Below, in pieces: positions 1 to 11,714 of a DNA stretch of 63,973 bases. The notes under the pieces are model-generated. The model saw only the letters and a program-made list of their open reading frames with translations, searched no databases and was not told where the DNA came from. Position 1 is the first letter of the stretch. Each line of letters opens with the position of its first letter. Position numbers and translations under genes: made by a program. Where the stretch lies: positions 1 to 63,973 of IMG/VR virus record IMGVR_UViG_3300008114_000027, one strand, 5' to 3'. The stretch is from a virus. Its lineage: Duplodnaviria; Caudoviricetes.

Positions 1-320
1 GGTCAACTTGGTGCCTTGTGGACTCACCCCGCACCGCCCATTATCTTCCGCTCTCGCGTCCCGAAACGCGCGCGTCCATGGTGTGCGTGTGCGTGTGTGT
101 GGTGACCTTCGAGCGCCCCTGTTTCGCTCCTGATTGCCTCGTATATTTTTCACGGGTACCCGACCTGACTGTATGTTTTTTCGGCGTATCCTTCGCTCTG
201 AACGTATAGTGTTTGCAAGGGTTTGGTGTATTTTACCGCTCTGCAGCCCGCGTCAACACTCGGAAAATAAAAAAAGTACCCGCATAAATTAAGGGTTTCA
301 GAGTTTTTATGTAAAATTTA

Positions 321-353
321 TTTGGAAATTGAAAATAGTTGATAGCATATTTG
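321..353 (+). promoter_or_regulatory. Probable early promoter, Bacteroidota sigma-A type
   Basis: TTTG at 321-324, 21-nt spacer, CATATTTG at 346-353 (one mismatch to TAnnTTTG). AT-rich upstream; precedes the whole + strand gene run. Confidence 0.55.
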
Positions 354-529
354 CACCGTCAAACAACGACAACGTGCTTTTACCCTCTCACGGTTAATCA
401 AGAGGGTCAGCCCTGAGGCAACAAGGGGACGGGAGGCAGCCCGATAATACAGTCAACATGCTGTAGCAATTTAATTAGCTAAACTGCCCTGAGCCGCACA
501 AATAGTGCGGGAGCCGAGACAAGCGAATA

Positions 530-591
530 GGCTAGCTGCACAGGGCAGCGCGCAACGGCGTAAGGTGGTTCGACTCCACCGCTAGCTACTA
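530..591 (+). ncRNA. tRNA-like element (acceptor stem plus T-arm, no normal D or anticodon arm)
   Basis: GGCTAGC (530-536) pairs with GCTAGCT (581-587). T-arm GGTGG-TTCGACT-CCACC (564-580). 3' end reads A-CTA. Only 62 nt. Confidence 0.6.
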
Positions 592-607
592 ACCAAATTT
601 CAATACC

Positions 608-967
608 ATGTACAAGATTGCATTTCACCTAGCGCGCGGCGCTAACTTTCAAAAGTTTCAAATTCGTGACGCTAACAACGAAGCGACCTATATTGAGCCT
701 AACGACTTCGACATTATCCTGCACAACTGCAAACTCAAAAATCAGAAGGGCGCGTCACTGCGTATATTCAAGGGCGGCGACAAGGCACGCTGCGCGTGGA
801 TAGAGTTCGAGCGCTACGAGGTCGTAGCTAAGGGTAACTACACGTCCGAGGTCGACGTGCGCTTCAATCCTAGGGTATCACCTACGTGGAACGTCGGCGG
901 CGTCGACAATCAGGACGACAGAACATTCGCTCAACTGCGTACCAACGGCCGCAAGGTCTACAAGTAA
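608..967 (+). CDS. Hypothetical early protein (119 aa)
   Basis: ATG after AT-rich leader; first ORF of the co-oriented run. Confidence 0.8.
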   Translation: MYKIAFHLARGANFQKFQIRDANNEATYIEPNDFDIILHNCKLKNQKGASLRIFKGGDKARCAWIEFERYEVVAKGNYTSEVDVRFNPRVSPTWNVGGVDNQDDRTFAQLRTNGRKVYK

Positions 968-973
968 AAACAC

Positions 974-1013
974 AGCCCCGCCACGAGAGTGAGCGGGGCT
1001 TTGGCAGTATAAC
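974..1013 (+). repeat. Intergenic bulged-hairpin motif, copy 1
   Basis: AGCCCCGC-CAC-gaga-GTG-a-GCGGGGCT-TTGGCAGTATAAC. Confidence 0.85.
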
Positions 1014-1033
1014 TAAATCAATTTTTTTTTATT

Positions 1034-1396
1034 ATGAAAGTAGAGTTAAACATTGGGCTTGGCAACAATCCCTTCGACGCGTCAGGCGCGGCAATGCTAG
1101 CAGCTAACGTGCTAACTAAAAACGGTGCAACAGAACTTGTGTTCCGCACCTCACAGGGCACCTACGAAGAGCAGGCGGAGCCCAACGTCATCATGAAGTT
1201 TGAATGGGACGTCGAGGGCGCCAAAGCGTTCCACGCCATGTCATTTCAGGACCTGCTCGAGGCGCTCGCAGTCATCATGACTCAAGAGTGTATCGCCTTC
1301 TACGTGCAGGAGTGGAGCGACGGCGGGCTAACGTACCGCACAGGTTGGGACGGCGACCGTCTAGACTTCTCGCTCGAGTACTTCGAGCGCTTCTAA
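1034..1396 (+). CDS. Hypothetical early protein (120 aa)
   Basis: ORF bounded by two hairpin motifs. Confidence 0.8.
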   Translation: MKVELNIGLGNNPFDASGAAMLAANVLTKNGATELVFRTSQGTYEEQAEPNVIMKFEWDVEGAKAFHAMSFQDLLEALAVIMTQECIAFYVQEWSDGGLTYRTGWDGDRLDFSLEYFERF

Positions 1397-1401
1397 TCTA
1401 C

Positions 1402-1443
1402 AGCCCCGCCACTAGCAAGTGTGCGGGGCTTTCTAGGTGTAAC
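1402..1443 (+). repeat. Intergenic bulged-hairpin motif, copy 2
   Basis: AGCCCCGC-CACT-agca-AGTG-t-GCGGGGCT-TTCTAGGTGTAAC. Confidence 0.85.
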
Positions 1444-1461
1444 CAATTAAATAATTTTATC

Positions 1462-1752
1462 ATGAGCAACATGCTATCAATTCACGACGAACTAAACAAC
1501 TTCGTTGACTACTACAACTCAGATGACGAACTGCGCTTTAAAATGCGCTCAGCCGTTATCGACTACCTCCAAGAGGTGCGCGAAGAGCCGCCCACGGTTA
1601 TATTCACGAAGATTTCGTACAAGGGCGACGACGTGTACGAGAAACACTTTGTGGGCAGCCTTGACCCGTGCAAAGAAAAGTTCCTGCTCACTGACCTGTC
1701 GGCCATGGTGCACAAGTACCAAGCGCTAGGCTGCGTGGTAGTCATCCGTTAA
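1462..1752 (+). CDS. Hypothetical early protein (96 aa, MSNMLSIH...)
   Basis: Start moved to ATG 1462, which follows the repeated leader TAACCAATTAAATAATTTTATC. Confidence 0.8.
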   Translation: MSNMLSIHDELNNFVDYYNSDDELRFKMRSAVIDYLQEVREEPPTVIFTKISYKGDDVYEKHFVGSLDPCKEKFLLTDLSAMVHKYQALGCVVVIR

Positions 1753-1758
1753 TTAACA

Positions 1759-1800
1759 AGCCCCGCCGCTCACCGCGTGCGGGGTTTTGTCAGTAGAAAC
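1759..1800 (+). repeat. Intergenic bulged-hairpin motif, copy 3
   Basis: AGCCCCGC-CGC-tcacc-GCG-t-GCGGGGTT-TTGTCAGTAGAAAC. Confidence 0.85.
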
Positions 1801-1814
1801 AAATACAAATCACA

Positions 1815-1949
1815 ATGAAGTTTACACTCCTTATCGCTTCACTAGCATGCATGGTGACAAGCGCAATCATCGCTGACCTTTTCCTCTTCGGGATATCCGT
1901 AGTGTCAGTGTTCAGTTCAATCCTATTAACCTTTCAAAAATCAAAGTGA
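1815..1949 (+). CDS. Small hydrophobic membrane peptide (44 aa; not in ORF track)
   Basis: MKFTLLIASLACMVTSAIIADLFLFGISVVSVFSSILLTFQKSK; TGATG coupling to the next gene. Confidence 0.7.
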   Translation: MKFTLLIASLACMVTSAIIADLFLFGISVVSVFSSILLTFQKSK

Positions 1950-2245
1950 TGAAAAATCCATTGGAAAAGTACGCGCGACTTGACAGCGCAACAGGCAAGG
2001 GTATGAACGAGGGCTTCTGCGTCAACGACGGCGAGGCTTACTTTGCCGAGCGCGAAGACCTTATCGCTTACCTGAGAGCGCGCAATGTCGACGAGTACAA
2101 CATACTCTCGGACGACTTCATACTCGACGAGGCTTACGAACTCGAAGACTACTACTACACCGAATGGGAGGTCGAAGATGAGGACACCTACTACATTGAG
2201 GTCAACGGCGAGTGGCTAGAGGTCATCAACGCAAAGGTTAACTGA
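1949..2245 (+). CDS. Acidic hypothetical early protein (98 aa)
   Basis: Very D/E-rich C-terminal half; its stop TGA lies inside the CTGATGA core of hammerhead 1. Confidence 0.8.
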   Translation: MKNPLEKYARLDSATGKGMNEGFCVNDGEAYFAEREDLIAYLRARNVDEYNILSDDFILDEAYELEDYYYTEWEVEDEDTYYIEVNGEWLEVINAKVN

Positions 2246-2285
2246 TGAGGCTTGAGTAGCCGAAACGCCGCGAGGCGTCTTAACC
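2236..2285 (+). ncRNA. Hammerhead ribozyme, type I, copy 1
   Basis: GGTTAA-CTGATGA-GGCT-tgagt-AGCC-GAAA-CGCC-gcga-GGCG-TC-TTAACC. Complete core; predicted cut after C2279. Confidence 0.95.
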
Positions 2286-2302
2286 AATCAATAAATTTTA
2301 TC

Positions 2303-2773
2303 ATGAAAGCAAACGCAACACGCATGACTGCTGAGGCAGTTAAACAACACAGCAAACGTGGGTACAATCCTCCACTATGGGAAGAGACAGTTGACCGCTA
2401 CCTGAAGTATGACAAGGTCGAGTTCTACCTGCTAGACCGCGACAAGCACAAGTCATACGATGAGTTCTTTGTCATCTACACCTTGCCTAGCGGCTTGAGG
2501 CTCATGGGCAGCCTTTCCTACAGTTCATCACTGACAAGCGCAGGCTTTTACGAGCTAAACTTGTTAGACCACGACATGGACGCGCTTATCGAGGATGTGC
2601 TAGCAGGCAAGCCCGTAGACATGAAGGACTACCTGTTCGACACTGACAGGGTGCTGCTGCAATCCCGCACAGACGTGACCTATAAAACGACGCCCGAGGC
2701 GCGTGACTACATGACTGAAGGCAGCACTAGGTTCGGCTTCATATTCACCAAGCAATACATTCACACAGCCTAG
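2303..2773 (+). CDS. Hypothetical early protein (156 aa)
   Basis: Start moved to ATG 2303 after the ribozyme and conserved leader. Confidence 0.8.
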   Translation: MKANATRMTAEAVKQHSKRGYNPPLWEETVDRYLKYDKVEFYLLDRDKHKSYDEFFVIYTLPSGLRLMGSLSYSSSLTSAGFYELNLLDHDMDALIEDVLAGKPVDMKDYLFDTDRVLLQSRTDVTYKTTPEARDYMTEGSTRFGFIFTKQYIHTA

Positions 2774-2780
2774 TACAACA

Positions 2781-2820
2781 AGCCCCGCCGCGTAAAGCGT
2801 GCGGGGATTTGTGGGTACAA
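2781..2820 (+). repeat. Intergenic bulged-hairpin motif, copy 4
   Basis: AGCCCCGC-CGC-gtaaa-GCG-t-GCGGGGAT-TTGTGGGTACAA. Confidence 0.85.
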
Positions 2821-2831
2821 ATCAAAATACA

Positions 2832-3017
2832 ATGACAAAAATCATCATGCTCTTTTGCCTGTTCACCGGAAAGGTTCAGCAGGTCGACAACCTCTACACC
2901 GTGCACGCCGGCACCGGCACCTACGAGTATGCCTGCGAGGGCGAGGTACTCCATTGGATAGAGACAGGGACATTCAACTACGACGACAGCCTGTGCGGCT
3001 GCGGCGAACTTAACTAA
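2832..3017 (+). CDS. Small hypothetical protein (61 aa)
   Basis: ATG 2832 after an A-rich leader. Confidence 0.7.
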   Translation: MTKIIMLFCLFTGKVQQVDNLYTVHAGTGTYEYACEGEVLHWIETGTFNYDDSLCGCGELN

Positions 3018-3037
3018 TCAAATCAAATCAAATCACC

Positions 3038-3166
3038 ATGAAAAAAGTAATCATTTTAGCAATCATCATCATCGCGCTCGCGTCATGCAGCACCAAGAAA
3101 CTTACACACTCACACTACACCAAGGGGGTAACGCACGGGCAGGACGGCTGCGCGTGGCACCGATAG
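3038..3166 (+). CDS. Small predicted lipoprotein (42 aa; not in ORF track)
   Basis: MKKVIILAIIIIALAS-CSTKK...: basic N-region, hydrophobic core, LAS-C lipobox. Confidence 0.75.
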   Translation: MKKVIILAIIIIALASCSTKKLTHSHYTKGVTHGQDGCAWHR

Positions 3167-3223
3167 GTTAACTGATGAGGTCTGAGTGACCGAAACCTAG
3201 GGCTCGCGCTCTAGGTCTTAACC
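3166..3223 (+). ncRNA. Hammerhead ribozyme, type I, copy 2
   Basis: GGTTAA-CTGATGA-GGTC-tgagt-GACC-GAAA-CCTAGGGC-tcgc-GCTCTAGG-TC-TTAACC; cut after C3217. Confidence 0.95.
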
Positions 3224-3240
3224 AAATAAATAATTTTATC

Positions 3241-3414
3241 ATGACAACTTACTTCATCTGCAACACAGACAGCTACGGGCAAAGAACAGGCACCTACCGC
3301 TCCATTCAAATAAGCGAAGCCGATATAGAAACTAATCACCATGGATGGAAATTCTACAACGGCATGTTTCTTTACGAGAGCGAGCACCAAGTCATACTAG
3401 CCTGCCAAGATTAA
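3241..3414 (+). CDS. Small hypothetical protein (57 aa; not in ORF track), flanked by two hammerheads
   Basis: MTTYFICNTDSYGQRTG...ILACQD; ATG after the conserved leader. Confidence 0.75.
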   Translation: MTTYFICNTDSYGQRTGTYRSIQISEADIETNHHGWKFYNGMFLYESEHQVILACQD

Positions 3415-3464
3415 GGTTAACTGATGAGTCCTGAATGGACGAAACGTCGTGAGACGTCTTAACC
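3415..3464 (+). ncRNA. Hammerhead ribozyme, type I, copy 3
   Basis: GGTTAA-CTGATGA-GTCC-tgaat-GGAC-GAAA-CGTC-gtga-GACG-TC-TTAACC; cut after C3458. Confidence 0.95.
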
Positions 3465-3481
3465 AATTAAATAATTTTATC

Positions 3482-3856
3482 ATGAGCAAAACAACGCGCG
3501 CTATCGGACAGCGCAATTCATTCACCAAGGCTTCAGAGCCTGCACCATTCAAAGTTAACCGCTTCGAGGTAGCTAGACTAGTCAAAGCACAAACCGACGC
3601 GATAACAAGCGGCGTATGGGACTACCCAATGGATTATAAATTCGCCAACAGCGGCGAGTTATGGGACGCAGTCAACGCAGGCAAGAGCGTGCAAAAGTTC
3701 GTGCGAGAGTGCATGATTGAGTTCGGCACGATTACAGGCGCCCTGCTAGGGAGTCAATTCAACCACGTGTCGCACAGCAGCAAGCACGCCATTCGCAAGG
3801 GCGTCATGAGAGCACAGCAGTACAAACAAATCATCGAACAATTAAAAACAAAGTAA
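3482..3856 (+). CDS. Hypothetical early protein (124 aa)
   Basis: Start moved to ATG 3482 after the conserved leader. Confidence 0.8.
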   Translation: MSKTTRAIGQRNSFTKASEPAPFKVNRFEVARLVKAQTDAITSGVWDYPMDYKFANSGELWDAVNAGKSVQKFVRECMIEFGTITGALLGSQFNHVSHSSKHAIRKGVMRAQQYKQIIEQLKTK

Positions 3857-3858
3857 CC

Positions 3859-4227
3859 ATGGGATTCTTCAGTTGGAAAACATCGGACACGGACAAGTCC
3901 ATCAGCAACGCATACAGCAAGAGAGGTGCGTTCAAAGTTTATATGATAACACCTACAGACAGGTACCTAGAACAGGAGTACGAGGGCTACGGGGTATTCG
4001 GTGGCAAGGACTACTACGAGCTAGTGTACGAGCTAAACAAGTGCAGGTACCATGGTCCTGAGGACGTGGAAGACAGGTCCAAGGGGATAAGGATAGCCTT
4101 CGAAAAAAACAACAAGGGCAATCTAGTCCTGCCAAAGTTTGCCGAGAGCGAAGACGCTTCGTGGTTGGAGCTACCTGATAGCAGGATATGCGAACAGCAA
4201 GGATACTTTTACCAATCAATAATATAA
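3859..4227 (+). CDS. Hypothetical phage protein (MGFFSW..., 122 aa)
   Basis: ORF tightly packed behind the previous gene. Confidence 0.8.
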   Translation: MGFFSWKTSDTDKSISNAYSKRGAFKVYMITPTDRYLEQEYEGYGVFGGKDYYELVYELNKCRYHGPEDVEDRSKGIRIAFEKNNKGNLVLPKFAESEDASWLELPDSRICEQQGYFYQSII

Positions 4228-4237
4228 AACAGGACCA

Positions 4238-4280
4238 AGCCCCGCCACTGCAAAGTGCGCGGGGATTTGGCGGTAGAAAC
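4238..4280 (+). repeat. Intergenic bulged-hairpin motif, copy 5
   Basis: AGCCCCGC-CACT-gcaa-AGTG-c-GCGGGGAT-TTGGCGGTAGAAAC. Confidence 0.85.
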
Positions 4281-4301
4281 AATTTAAAAAACAAATACAA
4301 T

Positions 4302-4676
4302 ATGGGACGTTCAGTATCAACACTACACGGCGCTAGATTATCATCGTATATCAGCGTCGACGACGAGGCTAACCACGAATGGATGGTCGAGGACCTGCAG
4401 GAGGTAGGTCAGGAGTTAAAACTAACTAGCTGCCAACGATGGGACGGGCGCGAGGTTCAAATTATCATGTCTGGACATGGCGTAGAGGTCGGTATCTCGG
4501 AGTACTGCGGGATAGTATCGATCGGGATACGAACCGAGGAGGAGTCTGATCCGATCGGCGACAAGTGGATAGACAAGAACGGGCAAGAGATTATCAAAGC
4601 CTTTCACCATCACGGCACGCCGATACGCAGCGTCGGAACATTCAGCAACGGGGAAACTATTTACGAAAAAAAATAA
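4302..4676 (+). CDS. Hypothetical early protein (124 aa, MGRSVST...)
   Basis: Start moved to ATG 4302 after the motif and A-rich leader. Confidence 0.8.
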   Translation: MGRSVSTLHGARLSSYISVDDEANHEWMVEDLQEVGQELKLTSCQRWDGREVQIIMSGHGVEVGISEYCGIVSIGIRTEEESDPIGDKWIDKNGQEIIKAFHHHGTPIRSVGTFSNGETIYEKK

Positions 4677-4683
4677 TAGCACA

Positions 4684-4851
4684 ATGAACATTAAAGTTTA
4701 TTTCGAGACGCAATCACCCGCATACGCGGAGCACGTCGCAACATTTCACGACAGCGGGACCTACACGGCTTGCTTTCCTGCACTAGACAAACTAAGAGAA
4801 GCGAACGGTTTTGATATCATCACCGAGAGCGTAGAGGAGGACGAGTCATGA
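4684..4851 (+). CDS. Small hypothetical protein (55 aa; not in ORF track)
   Basis: MNIKVYFETQSPAYAEHVATF...; ATGA overlap with the next ORF. Confidence 0.7.
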   Translation: MNIKVYFETQSPAYAEHVATFHDSGTYTACFPALDKLREANGFDIITESVEEDES

Positions 4852-5201
4852 GCGGAAGAAAGTTTTACAACAGCGGCAGGATTGCCAACGTGTTCAGTCA
4901 TCAGGACAGGCAGCGCCTGCTACACCACCACTCGATGGTCTACAAGATTTTTGTGGAGCTAAGCGAGGCGGGCTACTGGATGAAGCCGTCACTCATCGCT
5001 GAGTTTGAGGCGTGGAGCGACGAGGTCGAGATACGCATGGGCAAGAAGCCCGACAGCGACTACAGCTACAAGGTGCTAGAAAACTGCGCGGACTACGGCC
5101 CACTCACGCTGGCCGAGTACTTCGAAACCTGTGCAAGGCACACGCTTGCTTTGTGCGAGAGCCTTGGGGCGGAGTACAACGACCACCTGCCACGGATTTG
5201 A
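4848..5201 (+). CDS. Hypothetical protein (117 aa)
   Basis: ORF in the co-oriented run. Confidence 0.75.
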   Translation: MSGRKFYNSGRIANVFSHQDRQRLLHHHSMVYKIFVELSEAGYWMKPSLIAEFEAWSDEVEIRMGKKPDSDYSYKVLENCADYGPLTLAEYFETCARHTLALCESLGAEYNDHLPRI

Positions 5202-5222
5202 TATTAGTTTGGTTACACCATC

Positions 5223-5263
5223 GCCTCGCCATCCTTCGGGAGGCGGGGTTTTGGTGGTAGAAA
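5223..5263 (+). repeat. Intergenic bulged-hairpin motif, copy 6 (divergent)
   Basis: GCCTCGCC-a-TCC-ttcg-GGA-GGCGGGGT-TTTGGTGGTAGAAA; c(UUCG)g loop, same 3' tail. Confidence 0.75.
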
Positions 5264-5287
5264 GTCATAATAAAACATAAACACAAC

Positions 5288-5455
5288 ATGAAAGTAAGGA
5301 CACGCACTATTTTAGCGGCGACATTCACCGCTTACTGTATCGCCATGGCGGTTACAATGAATGAGGCACACGAGTACAGCAAGACCAAGCGGTGCTTGGA
5401 AGAGTACGGCGAGGGCGACGTAGGGATGTGCATGTGCTATGAAAACTGTAAATAA
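5288..5455 (+). CDS. Small Cys-rich protein with N-terminal hydrophobic segment (55 aa; not in ORF track)
   Basis: MKVRTRTILAATFTAYCIAMAV...CMCYENCK. Confidence 0.65.
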   Translation: MKVRTRTILAATFTAYCIAMAVTMNEAHEYSKTKRCLEEYGEGDVGMCMCYENCK

Positions 5456-5473
5456 TTTAAACCAAATAAAAAG

Positions 5474-5803
5474 ATGAAGAGATACTTCACATACCAAAAA
5501 CAGCGCATGATATTCGAGAGCGCCATGACCCACGTCATAATCGAGGAGACCACCAATCAGACTCAGTCACTGAAGCTAAGGAAGGGGGTGCACCTCTCGG
5601 ACTGGATGATGACCAAGGAAGAGGGCGAGGCGAGGCTCGAAGAGATTGCCAAGTACGAGTGCGACGGGGCCACCATAGAAGGCGGCGCCGTCTCCAACGA
5701 GGGCAGCAGGTACCAACTGCACAGCATAGAGAACCTGAGCGAGATTGAACTACTCAAGATGTCGCGCGTGCTACCACTAACATTCAAAGTATATCAACCA
5801 TAA
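5474..5803 (+). CDS. Hypothetical protein (109 aa)
   Basis: ORF with A-rich leader. Confidence 0.75.
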   Translation: MKRYFTYQKQRMIFESAMTHVIIEETTNQTQSLKLRKGVHLSDWMMTKEEGEARLEEIAKYECDGATIEGGAVSNEGSRYQLHSIENLSEIELLKMSRVLPLTFKVYQP

Positions 5804-5807
5804 AGCA

Positions 5808-6044
5808 ATGAACATGAAACTAAAAGGGTATCAGCCTATGGCCATGAAGATTGGCAACGGCGAGGTCGGGCTAGACGACAACGACTTCATCGAGTGGAGA
5901 AATTTCTACAGGAACAAACTGAGCGGGATGTTTGTCGACTTCATGGTCGACGAGTTAGAGGCGGCCATGGAGATGGGCGAGGACGGCTTCACGCTCATGA
6001 TATATAACCAATACAAGGGGCTACTCACCCCTGCACTAAACTAA
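5808..6044 (+). CDS. Hypothetical protein (78 aa)
   Basis: Packed ORF. Confidence 0.7.
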   Translation: MNMKLKGYQPMAMKIGNGEVGLDDNDFIEWRNFYRNKLSGMFVDFMVDELEAAMEMGEDGFTLMIYNQYKGLLTPALN

Positions 6045-6050
6045 CACAGC

Positions 6051-6230
6051 ATGCAACAGGTAATCTCAAAGCAGGGGACGTTCCGCAAGGATAACTCCAT
6101 CACCGTGTTCGAGGGAGACGTCACGGTGAAAAGCGACGACAGGTACACCACCATATCGGGCACGCACTACAGGCACAACTACGATTGGGGTAACCATTGG
6201 ACAGTAAACGGAGGCAGGGTATGGAAATAG
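6051..6230 (+). CDS. Small hypothetical protein (59 aa; not in ORF track)
   Basis: MQQVISKQGTFRK...GGRVWK fills the gap between neighbours. Confidence 0.6.
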   Translation: MQQVISKQGTFRKDNSITVFEGDVTVKSDDRYTTISGTHYRHNYDWGNHWTVNGGRVWK

Positions 6231-6397
6231 ACAACCTAATACTCATCACGTTCCTGTCCTATTGGGGCAGCCTAATCCTGTTGGCTAGTCAATGGTCAAG
6301 AAGGAAACCAATCACGAGGGTATCACTCATACTCCTATCAATCGCGCTCGCGTGGTTGACAGGGTACCTAGCATGGAGTTCGATATGCGCTGGATGA
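6221..6397 (+). CDS. Small two-TM membrane protein
   Basis: Two hydrophobic stretches separated by SRRKPITR. Confidence 0.6.
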   Translation: MEIDNLILITFLSYWGSLILLASQWSRRKPITRVSLILLSIALAWLTGYLAWSSICAG

Positions 6398-6549
6398 CAT
6401 GGACAATATCTATAGCCGTCTCAGTCAGCGTGCTGTGCTGGTACTATAGCAGGGGTGGGAGGGGAGTCTTCTACCTGATAGCGGGACTCATAATGCTCAG
6501 CATCGTGAGGCCGCACGTGAACAGGGCAACCGCACGCAAGGTGTGGTAG
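6373..6549 (+). CDS. Small two-TM membrane protein
   Basis: Two hydrophobic stretches and a basic tail; start taken at ATG 6373. Confidence 0.55.
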   Translation: MEFDMRWMTWTISIAVSVSVLCWYYSRGGRGVFYLIAGLIMLSIVRPHVNRATARKVW

Positions 6550-6747
6550 CTTATCTAGGCGCATAAACTAGCGCGTGATTGATAACATCTATAAGAATTT
6601 AGGTATCGATTGAAATTATTTATAAGACTTTCGATCCCTAGTTCGTATAAAAAATGTAACTTTCAGCACGCGTTAGTTAGCGCACACTAAACCGTTTAAG
6701 TATATAAATTTCAAGCAGTTAATAAAATTAAAAACAAAACAAAACAG

Positions 6748-7152
6748 ATGTACAAGATACCAACAACATGTCTCGGGTGGATAGACCTCCTGCCCGCAGA
6801 GGTAAGAGAGCAGGCCATAAAGAACGCCAGCCCGAGGTCATTACAGGACGACTGCAACAGCATGTACGACGCATTGGCAATCTCATTCGTGTGGAAGAAC
6901 ACGCCCGAGGGCGAGGAGTACTGGAAGGATATGGCTGACAGTCACACACCAAACTTCCTCTCGTTCATAGTGCAGTTCAGGGACTGTATCAACCTGTCGG
7001 AGGTGGCTAGGTTCGGCGGCATAAAGCGCCAGACATTGGAGGACGCGCTGAGGGATGAGGACAAGCACACACCTGCCATGAACCAGCGCATCATGACGAT
7101 GTTCACTCAAATGCAGAGGGCACTCAACGAGATAAACAGCGATGAGGAGTAG
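6748..7152 (+). CDS. Protein with C-terminal HTH-like segment
   Basis: INLSEVARFGGIKRQTLEDAL resembles an XRE-type HTH. Confidence 0.55.
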   Translation: MYKIPTTCLGWIDLLPAEVREQAIKNASPRSLQDDCNSMYDALAISFVWKNTPEGEEYWKDMADSHTPNFLSFIVQFRDCINLSEVARFGGIKRQTLEDALRDEDKHTPAMNQRIMTMFTQMQRALNEINSDEE

Positions 7153-7369
7153 AGAGTCAAGGGCGCTGTCGATAATCAAGTTCTTCATAGACAACCCGAT
7201 CCCGTACAAGAGGGCAGCGAAGGTATTCTACCCCTCGCGTGAGAGGGCGCTGCTGATGAGGGTCTTCAAGAACAGTAACGACTACGACGACGAGGACTTG
7301 AGGGTGTGGGAACTAATCATAAAACAGATAAAAGAGTATGACAAGAAGGTCAAGAAAGAGGCGGGCTAA
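7142..7369 (+). CDS. Hypothetical protein (75 aa)
   Basis: Overlap-coupled ORF. Confidence 0.65.
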   Translation: MRSRESRALSIIKFFIDNPIPYKRAAKVFYPSRERALLMRVFKNSNDYDDEDLRVWELIIKQIKEYDKKVKKEAG

Positions 7370-7766
7370 CGCGGGACGTTACCGCCTGCCAAAGGAGAAG
7401 AGGTCGAGAGGCCCATCCAAACTAGCCATGCTGAGGGAGGAGCAGAGGGTGACACTCACGGTCCGAATGGGCGACGCCAAGGTCGAGCAGAGACTGGTCA
7501 GGACTATAAAGCAGGTCCTCGACAGGCTGGACAACCCGACGTACAGGACACCGCTTAGGATGGCGGTATACTTCGACCACCTGTTCGTCACCATCGAGCC
7601 TAACCACATGAAGCGCAAGCGCAGGCTGATGAAGATGTTCAGGCTGAGGCCCACGGTGGAGGACATAAGGTGGGTCAACCTCATATGGAAAGAGCAGAGC
7701 GCCATGGCCGTGAGGTCGAGAAGGCTTGGCATAAGGACAGGTATAATAAACAAACAGATATCATAG
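7338..7766 (+). CDS. Very basic, Arg-rich hypothetical protein (142 aa)
   Basis: R/K-rich composition; possible nucleic-acid binder. Confidence 0.6.
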   Translation: MTRRSRKRRANAGRYRLPKEKRSRGPSKLAMLREEQRVTLTVRMGDAKVEQRLVRTIKQVLDRLDNPTYRTPLRMAVYFDHLFVTIEPNHMKRKRRLMKMFRLRPTVEDIRWVNLIWKEQSAMAVRSRRLGIRTGIINKQIS

Positions 7767-7767
7767 C

Positions 7768-8400
7768 ATGAATTTACTACAGAAACTACAGGCCATCCAG
7801 TCAAAGGTTAGGGCGGTGGCAAAGGACAACGACACGCAGAGTCGTTTCAACCCGAACGGATTTAAGTACGTGAGCGGGGACAAAATCATCGGCGTCATCC
7901 GCCCGCTGATGGACGAGTACAAGGTGATCCTGAAGAGCGAGGTGCTGGCGATAAACAATTCAGTCCAGCAGTACACCACGAGCAAGGGCGCGACAAAGAA
8001 CGAGGTTCTAACCAACATCTCGATGAAGATGACTTGGATAGACACCGAGTCAGGAGAGCGCGAGGAGTGCATGTGGGGTGCCAACGGGATGAACGACTGG
8101 GACAAGGGGTTCGGAAGCGCCGTGACCTACGGTATCAGGTACTTCATACTCAAGTCATTCCTAGTTAGCACGGACAGCGACGACGTGGACGCTATCGTTA
8201 GGGACTACGAGGATCAGGAACGCGCCCCGTCTAACGCAGCGCCAGCGCCAGAATCCGACAAGCCTTGGATTGAGGACAACGCAGAGGCCATGGCCAAGGT
8301 CGAGGGCTTCATGTCCAGCGGCGGATCAATCGACGACGTGTACAAGAAGTACCGAATGAAGAAGGTTACAAAGGAACGTCTAATTAAACTAAGCAAATAA
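7768..8400 (+). CDS. erf: ERF-family single-strand annealing protein
   Basis: N-terminal LLQKLQAIQ...FKYVS and the DKGFGSAVTYGIRYFILKSFLVSTDSDD signature. Confidence 0.85.
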   Translation: MNLLQKLQAIQSKVRAVAKDNDTQSRFNPNGFKYVSGDKIIGVIRPLMDEYKVILKSEVLAINNSVQQYTTSKGATKNEVLTNISMKMTWIDTESGEREECMWGANGMNDWDKGFGSAVTYGIRYFILKSFLVSTDSDDVDAIVRDYEDQERAPSNAAPAPESDKPWIEDNAEAMAKVEGFMSSGGSIDDVYKKYRMKKVTKERLIKLSK

Positions 8401-8870
8401 TGAATCAAGTACAGCTATTCAACCAAGACCTCATGAGCAGGGATGGTATCAAGAAACTATCGGACGCCATCGTGCAGTCACTAGAGGACGGAGACTTCAA
8501 CCCGCTAGACTTTAAGCTAGCGGCCAAGGGCTTCGAGAAACTGATGGAGGCCGTGAAGAAACCGATCGACAGGGCGGCGATGACCGAGGCGGAGAAGTAC
8601 TCGGCAAAGAACTTCACCTACAAGGGCGCCGACATACAGGTGGCGGAGAACCTAGGCGTGTCTTACGACTACAGCGGATGCAACCACCCCGAGTACGTCA
8701 GGGTACTCGAAGAGTTCAACGCCATAGCAAAGCGAAAGAAGGAGATAGAGGCGCAGCTACAGGCTACTAAGCATAGCTTCACCATGGTCGACGAGGAGAC
8801 GGGCGAGGTGGTGACGGTGTACCCTCCAGTTAAGTCCTCCACATCAGGGATCAAGATTACCATAAAATAA
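8400..8870 (+). CDS. Hypothetical protein coupled to ERF (156 aa)
   Basis: TAATG coupling with erf. Confidence 0.75.
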   Translation: MNQVQLFNQDLMSRDGIKKLSDAIVQSLEDGDFNPLDFKLAAKGFEKLMEAVKKPIDRAAMTEAEKYSAKNFTYKGADIQVAENLGVSYDYSGCNHPEYVRVLEEFNAIAKRKKEIEAQLQATKHSFTMVDEETGEVVTVYPPVKSSTSGIKITIK

Positions 8871-8877
8871 TAAGCAC

Positions 8878-9111
8878 ATGAAACTAATGAAGGGAAAGGT
8901 CATGATCAAGCCAGTGCTTGAGAAGGCCAGCGAGCTGATCGATATCGAGCAAAGGCGCGTAACCAAGGCGGTGATTGTACAGACAGGCGAGTGCGAGTAC
9001 GTCAGGTCAGGTATGACGGTACTCATCAAGCCTACAGGGCTGAAGATGTTCACGCAGAGCGAAGACCAGACGCTGATCGTGGACGAGGACAGCATACTCG
9101 CAGAGGTATGA
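8878..9111 (+). CDS. GroES-like co-chaperonin (divergent)
   Basis: KVMIKPV...AVIVQTG...VRSGMTVL...LIVDEDSILA pattern. Confidence 0.6.
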   Translation: MKLMKGKVMIKPVLEKASELIDIEQRRVTKAVIVQTGECEYVRSGMTVLIKPTGLKMFTQSEDQTLIVDEDSILAEV

Positions 9112-9422
9112 ACACCACACCGTGCAAGTTTTACAGGGCAGGATCTATAGCACGATCCGCCCTTGACTTTGTTGATGCCGAGATGGGGCAGCTGGTCCAT
9201 GTGTACCCTGCGGACAACAACGAAAATCTGGCGCTCATCATTGACGAAAGGGGCGACTTCATCACTACCTTTGTTAGCTTTGTTCGTGTCACAGACGTGG
9301 GCAGGGAGGACAGGATAGAGAGGATGATATCCGAGATACTCAAAGTGTCAAGGTCCTACGTCCCGTCGATGATCAGGGACCAGTACGAGAGGGATATTAT
9401 AAACATAAAAAGAAAGCCATGA
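9108..9422 (+). CDS. Hypothetical protein (104 aa)
   Basis: ATGA coupling at both ends; start moved to 9108. Confidence 0.7.
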   Translation: MNTTPCKFYRAGSIARSALDFVDAEMGQLVHVYPADNNENLALIIDERGDFITTFVSFVRVTDVGREDRIERMISEILKVSRSYVPSMIRDQYERDIINIKRKP

Positions 9423-9787
9423 AAAAGAAACTAATTATAGGCGGGGTGATTGTGCTGATAGTCACAGCCGTGATACTAATCATGAGGGACGACAAGCCTC
9501 AGCTATCGGCAACCGACCAGCTCATACAGGATGAGATCGACCACATCAAGGAGCGGGTCGAGATGAGGGACGCCGTGATCAACGAGCTGGTGATCGAGCT
9601 AAGGATGAGGGACTCACTCATAGCAAGCATACAGCAGGGGAAAACTTCTATAACCAACAAATACTATTACGATGAAAAATTTATTCTTAGTTCTAGCGAC
9701 AGCGCTAACCGTTCTCTTCGCGTCAACAACCAACGAATGTTTGTCTCAGACTTCTTCAGCGGCAGATACGCTCCCAAATCTAAGTGA
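9419..9787 (+). CDS. N-terminally anchored coiled-coil membrane protein (i-spanin-like)
   Basis: MKKK followed by a TM helix and a predicted coiled coil; overlaps the next gene by 116 nt. Confidence 0.5.
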   Translation: MKKKLIIGGVIVLIVTAVILIMRDDKPQLSATDQLIQDEIDHIKERVEMRDAVINELVIELRMRDSLIASIQQGKTSITNKYYYDEKFILSSSDSANRSLRVNNQRMFVSDFFSGRYAPKSK

Positions 9788-10112
9788 TGACCAAGTATTC
9801 AACCTGTGCTACAGCTCACTGAATTATTGGTGGGGATACTCTAACATTCAGGACGCGCTGCTCCAGCAGTACATACAGAAAGTAAAACTGTACGAGAAGA
9901 TGACAGGGGTACAGGCACAGAGCGTCGAGGATCTGGAGAGACTCTACCGTATACGTGAGGCGCAGATAGCAGAGAAGGACAGCAGGATAGACGAGCTGGA
10001 GGGTCAGTTAAAAAAAGCTAACAGGCGCAAGTCTACCATAAAAGTTGGTATGTTTGTCATCACACCAGCAGCCCTATTAGCGGGCGTTTATATAGGAACT
10101 AAATTAAAATAA
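9672..10112 (+). CDS. Signal peptide, coiled coil and C-terminal TM protein (spanin-like)
   Basis: MKNLFLVLATALTVLFA signal; C-terminal GMFVITPAALLAGVYIG. Confidence 0.5.
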   Translation: MKNLFLVLATALTVLFASTTNECLSQTSSAADTLPNLSDDQVFNLCYSSLNYWWGYSNIQDALLQQYIQKVKLYEKMTGVQAQSVEDLERLYRIREAQIAEKDSRIDELEGQLKKANRRKSTIKVGMFVITPAALLAGVYIGTKLK

Positions 10113-10117
10113 AAGTC

Positions 10118-10411
10118 ATGAACGTAGGACAAGAAGTTGTATGTATCAAGGACCACTCCCGAGGCATAGTCAGGGAGGGTGAGATGTACACCGTGCAGGA
10201 TGTCACGGAGACCCCATGCTGCCAGACAGTACTCATAGACATAGGCAAGAGACACGGCAGCAAGATCATCATGTGCACGTGCGGGAATAAGTTCCCCATC
10301 GACGTGCCGATTCATTACCTAGCCGCCTTCCTGTTTGCCCCTCTGGATGACCTGTTCAACACGGAGATCTCGGAGCTGATGTCCGAGGTTGAGACGACAA
10401 TAGAATTATAA
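10118..10411 (+). CDS. Small protein with possible Zn-binding Cys pairs
   Basis: PCCQ and MCTCG motifs. Confidence 0.65.
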   Translation: MNVGQEVVCIKDHSRGIVREGEMYTVQDVTETPCCQTVLIDIGKRHGSKIIMCTCGNKFPIDVPIHYLAAFLFAPLDDLFNTEISELMSEVETTIEL

Positions 10412-10429
10412 ACCAACACACACATAACA

Positions 10430-10654
10430 ATGATAAACATTGAGAGCAAACCAAAGAAGACGATCCAACACTTTGATGGATCGATCACACTAGACAAGAC
10501 CTACACGTACACCGTATCGAAGTGTATCAACGGCGAGGTCAAGTACATTGTAGAGATGCACGATGAACTACCCGAGGCACTAACTAGTGCAATCATTGGA
10601 GGTATCCTCAACTACTGCACGACCATAGGTATAGGTCAGGTTGAAAACAAATAA
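10430..10654 (+). CDS. Hypothetical protein (74 aa)
   Basis: Packed ORF with A-rich leader. Confidence 0.7.
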   Translation: MINIESKPKKTIQHFDGSITLDKTYTYTVSKCINGEVKYIVEMHDELPEALTSAIIGGILNYCTTIGIGQVENK

Positions 10655-10665
10655 TTTCACAAACG

Positions 10666-11112
10666 ATGAAACAGACAGAAGAAATTTCACAAACAATGCA
10701 ACAGACAGAAGAGAAGAAAGAGCTGACCCTAGAGGAAGCTAAGAAACAGATGGAACGTAACAAGATCGTGTCGTTCCTCATGTACACCATAGTGATGGGC
10801 TACCTAGCCGATGAGCTAGCTGGCAAGTACATAACCAAGGATGTGAAGATGACCTTCAACAGGTTCTTTGACACGTTCATGAAGCGCAACAAGCACAACC
10901 TAGACCAGCTGTTCAACATGTCGATAGACGAGATGCCCGACAGAGGGGCCGCGTTCTTGGAGACACAGCAGATGATCGAGATGCTGGCGGGAAGGGTTGC
11001 CATGCTGCCAGTCCACGCCTACCCAGACATCGTCATGATCATAGACGCCTATGTCGCGGGGCAGGTTATAAGAGAAGGTGATACAGACACAGAAGAGAAG
11101 CCATCCGAATAG
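10666..11112 (+). CDS. Hypothetical protein (148 aa)
   Basis: Last + strand ORF. Confidence 0.75.
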   Translation: MKQTEEISQTMQQTEEKKELTLEEAKKQMERNKIVSFLMYTIVMGYLADELAGKYITKDVKMTFNRFFDTFMKRNKHNLDQLFNMSIDEMPDRGAAFLETQQMIEMLAGRVAMLPVHAYPDIVMIIDAYVAGQVIREGDTDTEEKPSE

Positions 11113-11123
11113 GGTGGCTTTTA
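11098..11123 (+). terminator. Terminator hairpin at the convergence of the two gene blocks
   Basis: AAGCCATCC-gaata-GGGTGGCTT followed by TTA. Confidence 0.55.
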
Positions 11124-11714
11124 TCTTTCCGCTATAAACTCTCGCACCACATACGAGGTAGCAGTCTTGGGCTGCTCCACGTCTGGTGACTTCTTAACCT
11201 TAACAACCGATCGGCCACCTTCTGGACAGAAGTAGTCGGCCATCCTCTCCTTAGTAACCCTCCTGCCTTGGTTCCCCAAGTTTGTCTTGAAGGTCTCGTA
11301 GCCAGACATGTCCACGCCTAGCGCGTACATCCGCATCTCAACGTCGGCTACCGTGTTACCCATCTCGTTGATTATACTATACCTATTGACGCCGTCGTGG
11401 CTGGACACCGCAAGTTCTGGGGTGCTATCCTCCACGCTCACGTCCATGCTCACGCCGTACTGTTTAGCAGCAAACATGAGCGCCACAATCTCCGCGTGGA
11501 TCGTCGGCACCAGACCCTTCTGGTCCATGCCAGCGTACTGACCACGGAACACCGGGCTATACTGACCTGTTCGCTTGTCGTAAAGCCTTACGGCTACCTC
11601 AATAATTGAATTGTAGCTTGTCCTGTCTACGCGCTCTACTATATAGCCCGCTTCCGAGAACAGGCCGTGAACTTTTAGCAGGTAGGACTGCTCTGTCTTT
11701 AACGTTACATTCAT
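11121..11714 (-). CDS. Hypothetical protein (197 aa)
   Basis: Long ORF, last of the - strand block. Confidence 0.75.
   Translation of the reverse strand: MNVTLKTEQSYLLKVHGLFSEAGYIVERVDRTSYNSIIEVAVRLYDKRTGQYSPVFRGQYAGMDQKGLVPTIHAEIVALMFAAKQYGVSMDVSVEDSTPELAVSSHDGVNRYSIINEMGNTVADVEMRMYALGVDMSGYETFKTNLGNQGRRVTKERMADYFCPEGGRSVVKVKKSPDVEQPKTATSYVVREFIAER

Follow-up and report, generated by a model that had tools for sequence, protein, structure and literature searches.

In 2011, Perreault et al. (PMC3088659) reported hundreds of bacterial hammerhead ribozymes in the neighborhood of prophage genes. According to their work, multiple hammerheads flank individual prophage genes, the identities of which are not constant, and three of the clusters cleave in vitro, that of Agrobacterium tumefaciens also in vivo; the authors proposed that long phage transcripts are processed in this way into single-gene mRNAs. 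The same report describes HHphage of the haloviruses HF1 and HF2, which precedes a start codon by 13 nt on a polycistronic early transcript; there, the mapped 5' end and the cut are no more than 3 nt apart (PMC3088659). As to what the hammerheads of bacteria and phages do, a review of 2019 still regards their role as unresolved (PMC6765202). Here we analyze IMGVR_UViG_3300008114_000027, a complete virus record (Duplodnaviria; Caudoviricetes) with an estimated completeness of 97%, all 63,973 bp of which are referred to as the window, and three type I hammerheads in it, HH1, HH2, and HH3, which an original prediction made from the letters alone had taken for covarying ribozymes, each releasing an mRNA with a 23-nt leader. 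We think, with a probability of roughly 75%, that HH1 to HH3 are genuine, selectively maintained type I hammerheads serving as intercistronic punctuation in a plus-strand block of small genes. What the sequences establish is the structural motif with its fold and covariation, the dense packing of each copy from stop to start codon, and the interchange of hammerheads with GC-rich hairpins between sister phages; the reading itself is the one proposed for prophages in 2011, namely that the RNA itself would cut a long transcript between its cistrons (PMC3088659).

The arrangement resembles that of the prophage clusters of Clostridium scindens, Azorhizobium caulinodans, and A. tumefaciens, where close-set hammerheads on the coding strand surround single genes or short blocks that derive from phages (PMC3088659): HH1 to HH3 fall within 1.25 kb, on the strand of the open reading frames (ORFs), and a single gene of 57 aa separates HH2 from HH3. 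Cleavage was shown for those clusters and is predicted for the hammerheads of the window. HHphage shares with them the short distance to a start codon but belongs to an archaeal virus, has a variant core with insertions, and forms a single site at the head of a transcript rather than between cistrons. A parallel from a different system is offered by eukaryotic RNA viruses, in which self-cleavage of ribozymes in 5' untranslated regions enables cap-independent translation, as reported in 2026 (PMC13725137).

HH1 occupies positions 2236-2285 (2235..2287 with the flanking A and AA), HH2 positions 3166-3223 (3165..3225 with flanks), and HH3 positions 3415-3464 (3414..3466 with flanks), all on the plus strand, and the predicted cuts fall at 2279/2280, 3217/3218, and 3458/3459. 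When we checked the sequence, the three copies bore out the original prediction in every particular of sequence. Each contains the full catalytic core, made up of CTGATGA, GAAA, and the cleavage triplet GTC, and stem I is GGTTAA/TTAACC in all of them. Stem II reads GGCT/AGCC, GGTC/GACC, or GTCC/GGAC, with three of its four pairs changing in a compensatory manner and the G10.1-C11.1 pair invariant, while stem III features one compensatory change, from C-G to U-A, between HH1 and HH3; loop II is conserved as TGAGT in HH1 and HH2 and TGAAT in HH3. In size, stem III amounts to 4 bp plus the A-U pair in HH1 and HH3 and to 8 bp plus the A-U pair in HH2. The core residues of a hammerhead are present three times over (C3 U4 G5 A6 N7 G8 A9, G12 A13 A14, A15.1-U16.1, G10.1-C11.1, and a residue other than G at H17). 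The canonical three-way junction is the minimum free energy fold of each copy (-15.8 kcal/mol for HH1 and -21.9 kcal/mol for HH2; z of -2.3 to -2.9), and the strand order is that of type I, with stem I open and stems II and III closed by loops, in these folds as well as in the centroid folds and in alignments to the covariance model R1.

A loose core pattern finds 3 matches in the 64-kb window versus 0.38 expected, a number reached in 4 of 100 shuffles. The seed of the model R1 consists of 19 sequences, namely HH1, HH3, and 17 from other viral contigs, and does not include HH2; when run with filters off, the model returns exactly three matches in the phage, HH3 with 77.4 bits, HH1 with 75.7 bits, and HH2 with 57.8 bits, all on the coding strand and between ORFs, followed by a next best match of 12.8 bits. 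The Rfam covariance search, which had been suggested as a check, was negative at gathering thresholds, with no match in the whole window; in E-value mode, only HH3 matched Hammerhead_1 (RF00163), which scores it at 29.5 bits versus a gathering threshold of 34, HH1 and HH2 not being reported for this family. Topology and core are nevertheless those of RF00163, with which HH3 aligns from end to end. RAGATH-1 (RF03152) gives weak matches over the hammerhead portion of HH1 and HH3 (17.9 and 21 bits versus a gathering threshold of 56.3), and there is no convincing counterpart of the additional hairpin that this family has upstream. Such scores limit the claim of membership in an Rfam family, not the identification as hammerheads; since they lie below the gathering thresholds, routine Rfam annotation would miss HH1 to HH3.

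Judging from sequence features, HH1 to HH3 belong to a large phage class, characterized by an open stem I of 6 bp, flanking A residues, a U-N-A-R-U loop II, a stop codon that usually falls inside the ribozyme, and a leader mostly of 18 to 30 nt. The class was identified by searching viral contigs for the core together with loop II, a pattern found in at least 117 stretches. After dropping sites less than 40 nt from the start or less than 200 nt from the end of their locus, we kept 99 unique sites among the matches listed, of which 92 parse as type I hammerheads, and in every one of these (92/92) stem I is exactly 6 bp long, the next bases being unpaired. R1 was then applied to the window plus the 99 loci (943,612 bases) and gave 154 matches with an E value of 0.001 or lower. 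In the alignment of the best 150 of these 154 matches, comprising 126 distinct rows, 99.8% of the cells are paired, compared with 67.2% in shuffles and 25 to 42% in slid controls; an alignment fitted to the model favors pairing, but the margin over the controls is very large. There are 538 cells changed on both sides, and 13 of the 15 pairs covary.

The architecture of the class was counted over 135 sites, each with a sequence context of its own. Stem I is preceded by an A at every one of them and followed by an A at 133. Two sequences, UGAAU (65 sites) and UGAGU (27 sites), dominate loop II, and most of the other 43 sites have further variants of U-N-A-R-U; the cleavage triplets include 113 GUC and 19 GUA. 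Both flanking A residues and the U-N-A-R-U loop are candidates for a contact that would tie loop II to stem I in the tertiary structure, of the kind that makes hammerheads fast at low Mg2+. Upstream open frames, counted from 40 codons upward, terminate in the ribozyme's first 25 nt at 103 of 131 sites and at most 12 nt ahead of the ribozyme at 23 more; where the stop is internal, it often draws on the flanking A or coincides with the UAA of stem I or with a UGA, either that of the core or that of loop II. Two or more hammerheads occur in 33 loci, at spacings of 168 to 2,231 nt, i.e., those of single genes. An independent scan, based on stem I and the core only and leaving loop II and the flanks free, agrees with this picture. 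It excluded the loci found with the first pattern, hence UGARU loops are missing from it by design, and it yielded 100 new unique sites, 51 of which parse as full hammerheads; among these, 48 have the flanking A, most have a U-N-A-R-U loop II once more, and the median leader is 22 nt (interquartile range, 20 to 24). Upon inspection of 12 unparsed sites, most looked like matches in coding sequence, and two were hammerheads missed by the parser. HH1 to HH3 are thus real, good members of a widespread and already described kind of phage element, and Jimenez et al. are said to have reported hammerheads from the human microbiome, too, in 2011. The available portions of the text of Perreault et al. 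(PMC3088659) do not mention the 6-bp open stem I, the flanking A residues, the stop within the ribozyme, the 18- to 30-nt leader, or the swap with GC hairpins, nor did we find the regularities in leader length and stop overlap stated elsewhere in the literature searched; the alignments in the 2011 supplement may already contain the subclass.

In the window, each hammerhead fills the entire gap between a stop codon and the next ATG. The stop upstream of HH1 is the TGA at 2243-2245, which is part of the CUGAUGA core; that upstream of HH2 is the TAG at 3164-3166, overlapping stem I by one base; and that upstream of HH3 is the TAA at 3412-3414, which abuts the ribozyme. On the other side, cuts after 2279, 3217, and 3458 would leave exactly 23 nt before the ATGs at 2303, 3241, and 3482, in agreement with the original prediction. 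The leaders defined in this way (2280..2302, 3218..3240, and 3459..3481, all on the plus strand) are devoid of G, and they start with the 3' strand of stem I, which in HH1 accounts for the first 6 nt, so the earlier description of this strand as the beginning of an AT-rich leader holds.

The idea that selection maintains both activity and a fixed leader length, in contrast, is borne out only in part. A maintained hammerhead fold is supported by the covariation across the class and by compensatory changes in sister phages, whereas leader lengths vary. The three leaders of the window are near-identical copies with 1 to 3 differences, and they are equally long because they share one repeated sequence, of which a fourth copy without a hammerhead lies at 1439..1461 on the plus strand, after a GC hairpin and before the ATG at 1462; this copy has 3 mismatches to the leader pattern and equals the HH3 leader from the third base onward. 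In the sister phage G001, introduced below, the leaders measure 23, 19, 20, and 21 nt. Within the subgroup having GGTTAA in stem I, 42 of 46 leaders are 18 to 24 nt long, and exactly 23 nt is found in 10, including the three of the window and their near-identical relatives. Class-wide, 106 of 132 sites with an assignable start codon have leaders of 18 to 30 nt (median, 24). The conserved feature is therefore a narrow range of leader lengths, not a fixed number. The suggested tie to initiation without a Shine-Dalgarno (SD) sequence is not general either, as an SD-like 4-mer is present in 40 of 121 short leaders of the class, the share being 4 of 44 where stem I is GGTTAA and 36 of 77 elsewhere.

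Comparative evidence comes from G001, a sister phage genome of 64,659 bp (97% complete) with 4 hammerheads. Between positions 600-5800 of the window and 2000-6900 of G001 (locus L147), 11 small proteins are common at 55 to 94% identity, but their order is rearranged, and some cassettes are private to one phage, e.g., 2303-2773 in the window and 4057-4287 in G001. Sister-phage hammerheads were aligned by anchoring on the stop and start codons, and the orthologous ones exhibit compensatory changes in stems I and II. In a further relative, G002, the orthologue of HH3 carries a compensatory change from C-G to U-A in stem II. In G001, the ribozyme that follows the 57-aa gene forms stem I with the last six bases of that gene, GATTAA, matched by TTAATC on the 3' strand, and the G001 counterpart of HH1 has a wholly different stem III and a GUA site and is still a valid hammerhead. 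HH2 and the lipoprotein-like gene upstream of it are nearly identical in G001, with one loop change in HH2, and the homology stops about 8 nt past the cut.

The hammerheads are also exchanged for other elements at orthologous genes. A comparison of the window with G001 reveals such a swap upstream of the window genes starting at 1034, 2832, and 3241, where one phage carries a hammerhead and its sister a GC hairpin; at the 57-aa gene (3241), it is G001 that has the GC hairpin. The orthologue of the gene at 1462 in the more distant G003 is bounded by hammerheads on both sides, where the window and G001 have hairpins. Elsewhere the element is kept: a hammerhead follows the G001 orthologue of the 98-aa ORF (67% identity) and the orthologues of the 42-aa lipoprotein-like ORF in both G001 and G002, and one precedes the G001 orthologue of the 124-aa ORF (87% identity). 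Public sequencing runs with related sequence (shares of 0.05 to 0.11) come as contigs from aquatic, sediment, and wastewater libraries, four of six being probably DNA, and the parts of the window left uncovered in them carry no meaning. In one contig of a related phage from these runs, 3160 is joined to 3412, with loss of HH2 and its gene; in another, the end of HH3 (3466) is joined to gene 2832; and in a third, a tRNA-like element stands directly before the leader of the homologue of gene 2303, starting one base past the HH1 cut.

The GC-rich hairpin repeats that take part in these exchanges number five in the window (976-998, 1404-1428, 1761-1784, 2783-2806, and 4240-4264), all on the plus strand and intergenic between small genes, where their pattern has 5 matches versus 0.04 expected. 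They have the same outer stem and a variable inner part, each copy is followed by a short run of T and a loosely conserved tail, and they occupy slots that are held by hammerheads in sister phages. In a scan of positions 1-11500, they did not qualify as terminators, for which reason we call them hairpins, and a sigma-70 promoter scan of the same region gave matches at chance level (14 versus 10.5 expected). The tRNA-like structured RNA of about 225 nt (~366-592, plus strand), with a 7-bp acceptor-like stem and a T-arm at 567-580, opens the gene block; immediately after it come a TAACCAA leader and the ATG at 608. It is kept in G001 with apparent compensatory changes in two hairpins, although the upstream sequence and the downstream gene differ. 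ARAGORN calls no standard tRNA or tmRNA gene there, and an Rfam scan of positions 1-2100 in E-value mode gave chance-level matches only and did not recognize the element. When viral contigs were scanned for its 3' end, it was found only in the sister phage; a looser pattern mostly retrieved ordinary tRNAs. The element may be a substrate of tRNA-processing enzymes that defines an mRNA 5' end.

What hammerheads, hairpins, and the tRNA-like element have in common is the sequence that comes after them. The motif TAACYAA is found on the plus strand at 590, 1010, 1440, 2281, 3011, 3219, 3460, and 9651, approximately 18 to 27 nt before eight start codons, and what precedes the leaders beginning with it is a hammerhead, a GC hairpin, the tRNA-like element, or a plain stop codon. 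Because this start also follows GC hairpins and the tRNA-like element, the leader is a unit of its own, and given that it is independent of the upstream element, the stem I sequence of the subgroup may be dictated by the leader and not the reverse. TAACYAA may accordingly represent a leader element in its own right or a preferred junction of cassettes.

As background to the mechanism, hammerhead cleavage generates 5'-OH and 2',3'-cyclic phosphate ends. On the preferred reading, RNA polymerase would read through the block of small genes, and each ribozyme would fold and cut itself after GUC between two cistrons. The upstream message would retain stems II and III, nearly the whole ribozyme, with a 2',3'-cyclic phosphate at its 3' end, and this retained structure may take the role that falls to a GC hairpin at the corresponding position in the sister phage. 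The downstream message would begin with a 5'-OH and a short unstructured leader, of which only the first 6 nt would derive from the ribozyme; in the predicted fold of the RNA between the cuts (3218-3458), the HH2 leader is unpaired. Neighboring cistrons would thereby be uncoupled, and each would be given a standard 5' end regardless of the sequence upstream. HH1 to HH3 would be expected to cleave, given their complete catalytic core and the activity that other phage hammerheads have displayed in published assays, and cleavage may in turn affect mRNA stability or translation. Comparable arrangements are provided by the early polycistronic transcript of phage T7, which is processed by host RNase III, and by the synthetic ribozyme insulator RiboJ: in both, RNA is likewise cut between cistrons or before the ribosome-binding region, so that messages have ends of their own and are expressed independently of what lies upstream. 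T7, however, relies on a protein enzyme of the host and RiboJ is engineered, whereas the phage of the window is natural and its RNA would cut itself.

Several points weigh against this reading. The curated Rfam thresholds are not reached by any of the three copies. Stem I being short, AU-rich, and without a loop, fast cleavage at cellular Mg2+ would hinge on the putative tertiary contact through the flanking A residues. Before cleavage, the predicted fold pairs no more than the initial 6 nt of each 23-nt leader, and the start codon therefore needs no cleavage to be unmasked. In the sister phage, the same genes function with a GC hairpin in front of them, so no individual gene depends on a 5' end made by a ribozyme. 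Both of these points speak against a straightforward role in translation. With the upstream stop inside the ribozyme, folding could be held up by a ribosome that would sit on stem I and the core while terminating. Finally, the four contig sets from public runs that we examined contain related phages and cassette junctions, and assembled contigs cannot show RNA ends.

A broader interpretation, which we advance tentatively as a possibility, is the following: hammerhead, GC hairpin, and tRNA-like element could be interchangeable insulators of cistrons placed before a common UAACYAA leader start, forming a modular junction system that would allow small early genes to be freely reshuffled while having standard 5' ends that do not depend on what lies upstream and structured upstream 3' ends.

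Among the alternatives, the one that draws on the same junctions holds that the conserved blocks, i.e., the 5' strand of stem I with the core and the cleavage triplet with TAACCAA, are mainly recombination linkers for swapping cassettes, any effects on expression being secondary. Gene order does differ between the window and G001 despite the 55 to 94% identity of the proteins, homology breaks off at the junction of ribozyme and leader, the contigs of relatives join 3160 to 3412 and 3466 to 2832, and TAACYAA follows hammerheads, GC hairpins, and the tRNA-like element alike; in addition, stem I is identical in 40 of 80 pairs from within a locus versus 10% of the pairs between loci. A pure linker, however, would have no need of compensatory changes in stems II and III, of an intact core, or of a stem III hairpin that may have any sequence, and any functional element present in repeated copies should incur recombination at its conserved blocks as a side effect. 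We deem this alternative unlikely.

It is unlikely, too, that cleavage is conditional, with ribosomes on the upstream gene blocking the folding of the ribozyme and the cut reporting on, or being timed by, upstream translation. This would make sense of the stops of the three upstream ORFs in or at the ribozymes and of the 103 of 131 upstream frames that end within the first 25 nt across the class, yet such overlap could result from mere compaction of the genome, and the stop triplets belong to the hammerhead consensus anyway.

The identity of stem I in HH1 to HH3 would also suit a scheme in which cleavage products are rejoined through the common stem, by the reverse reaction or by a host ligase of the RtcB type, to give a circular RNA of 241 nt (3218-3458) with the 57-aa gene or transcripts that skip a cassette. 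Given the established chemistry, the RNA between HH2 and HH3 would possess a 5'-OH and a 2',3'-cyclic phosphate, and the possibility was raised by Perreault et al., who detected no spliced or circular product (PMC3088659). The predicted fold of 3218-3458 leaves the 5' end unpaired with the 3' stem I strand, the phage has no family match to RtcB (PF01139) or to RNA ligase (PF09414), and stem I is not uniform in half of the within-cluster pairs, G001 itself having one GATTAA/TTAATC variant; rejoining thus appears very unlikely. That the motifs are inactive relics or chance matches, as their scores under the Rfam gathering thresholds might suggest, is hardly credible in view of R1 scores of 58 to 77 bits against 12.8 for the next best match in the window, a perfect core, and covariation within the phage, between sister phages, and across the class.

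Turning to the genes around the hammerheads, the small ORFs of the plus strand form a block over approximately the first 11 kb of the record, which also carries genes for a portal protein, the large terminase, virion structural proteins, a primase/helicase, and an exonuclease on the minus strand. HH1 is preceded by an ORF of 98 aa (1949..2245) without a Pfam or PHROG match and followed by one of 156 aa (2303..2773), which has no Pfam or PHROG family and no orthologue within the first 7 kb of G001. Upstream of HH2 lies the lipoprotein-like ORF of 42 aa (3038..3166), matching Pfam LPAM_1 with an E value of 7.6e-4 and 20.2 bits versus a cutoff of 20. The 57-aa ORF (3241..3414) constitutes a single-gene cassette between HH2 and HH3, and an ORF of 124 aa (3482..3856) follows HH3; all five are on the plus strand. 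When ten small flanking proteins were compared with Pfam and PHROGs, the lipoprotein signal peptide of the 42-aa ORF was the one usable match. A match to Pfam Phage_L5_gp82 (16.8 bits, under the cutoff of 27) and one to a PHROG of unknown function (E value, 2.9e-4) were too weak to be retained.

By blastn, positions 1-8000 of the window have no DNA match among records of cultured phages. The host is probably a member of the Bacteroidota, because the relatives of the terminase, the bacterial contigs that share stem I and core, and the leaders without G all point there. The terminase relatives are distant without exception (about 26% identity) and comprise 87 records, all of them phages of Flavobacteriia except one labeled Caudoviricetes only. 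An exact search with the stem I and core of the window retrieved 5 bacterial contigs, 3 of Bacteroidota, one of these being a complete Paraflavitalea chromosome, and 2 from metagenome bins. The Paraflavitalea chromosome, the genome of a cultured member of the Bacteroidota, contains two hammerheads of the same class about 170 nt apart (locus L155, 3830-4074, minus strand). This pair presumably lies in a prophage and is a possible experimental handle.

The window leaves the question of the role of phage hammerheads unanswered but represents a clean natural test bed for it. Three active-looking ribozymes, five GC hairpins, and one tRNA-like element are found in the same kind of slot within 4 kb, and a sister phage carries the same genes behind different elements. 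A stop codon within the ribozyme, a 6-bp stem I between flanking A residues, and an 18- to 30-nt leader turn a vague idea of transcript processing into hypotheses that can be tested with reporters. Since Rfam thresholds miss HH1 to HH3, this abundant subclass is probably under-annotated in phage genomes. If hammerheads, GC hairpins, and the tRNA-like element do act as interchangeable insulators, they would be a natural counterpart of engineered ribozyme insulators and would supply a functional rationale for the hammerheads of phages.

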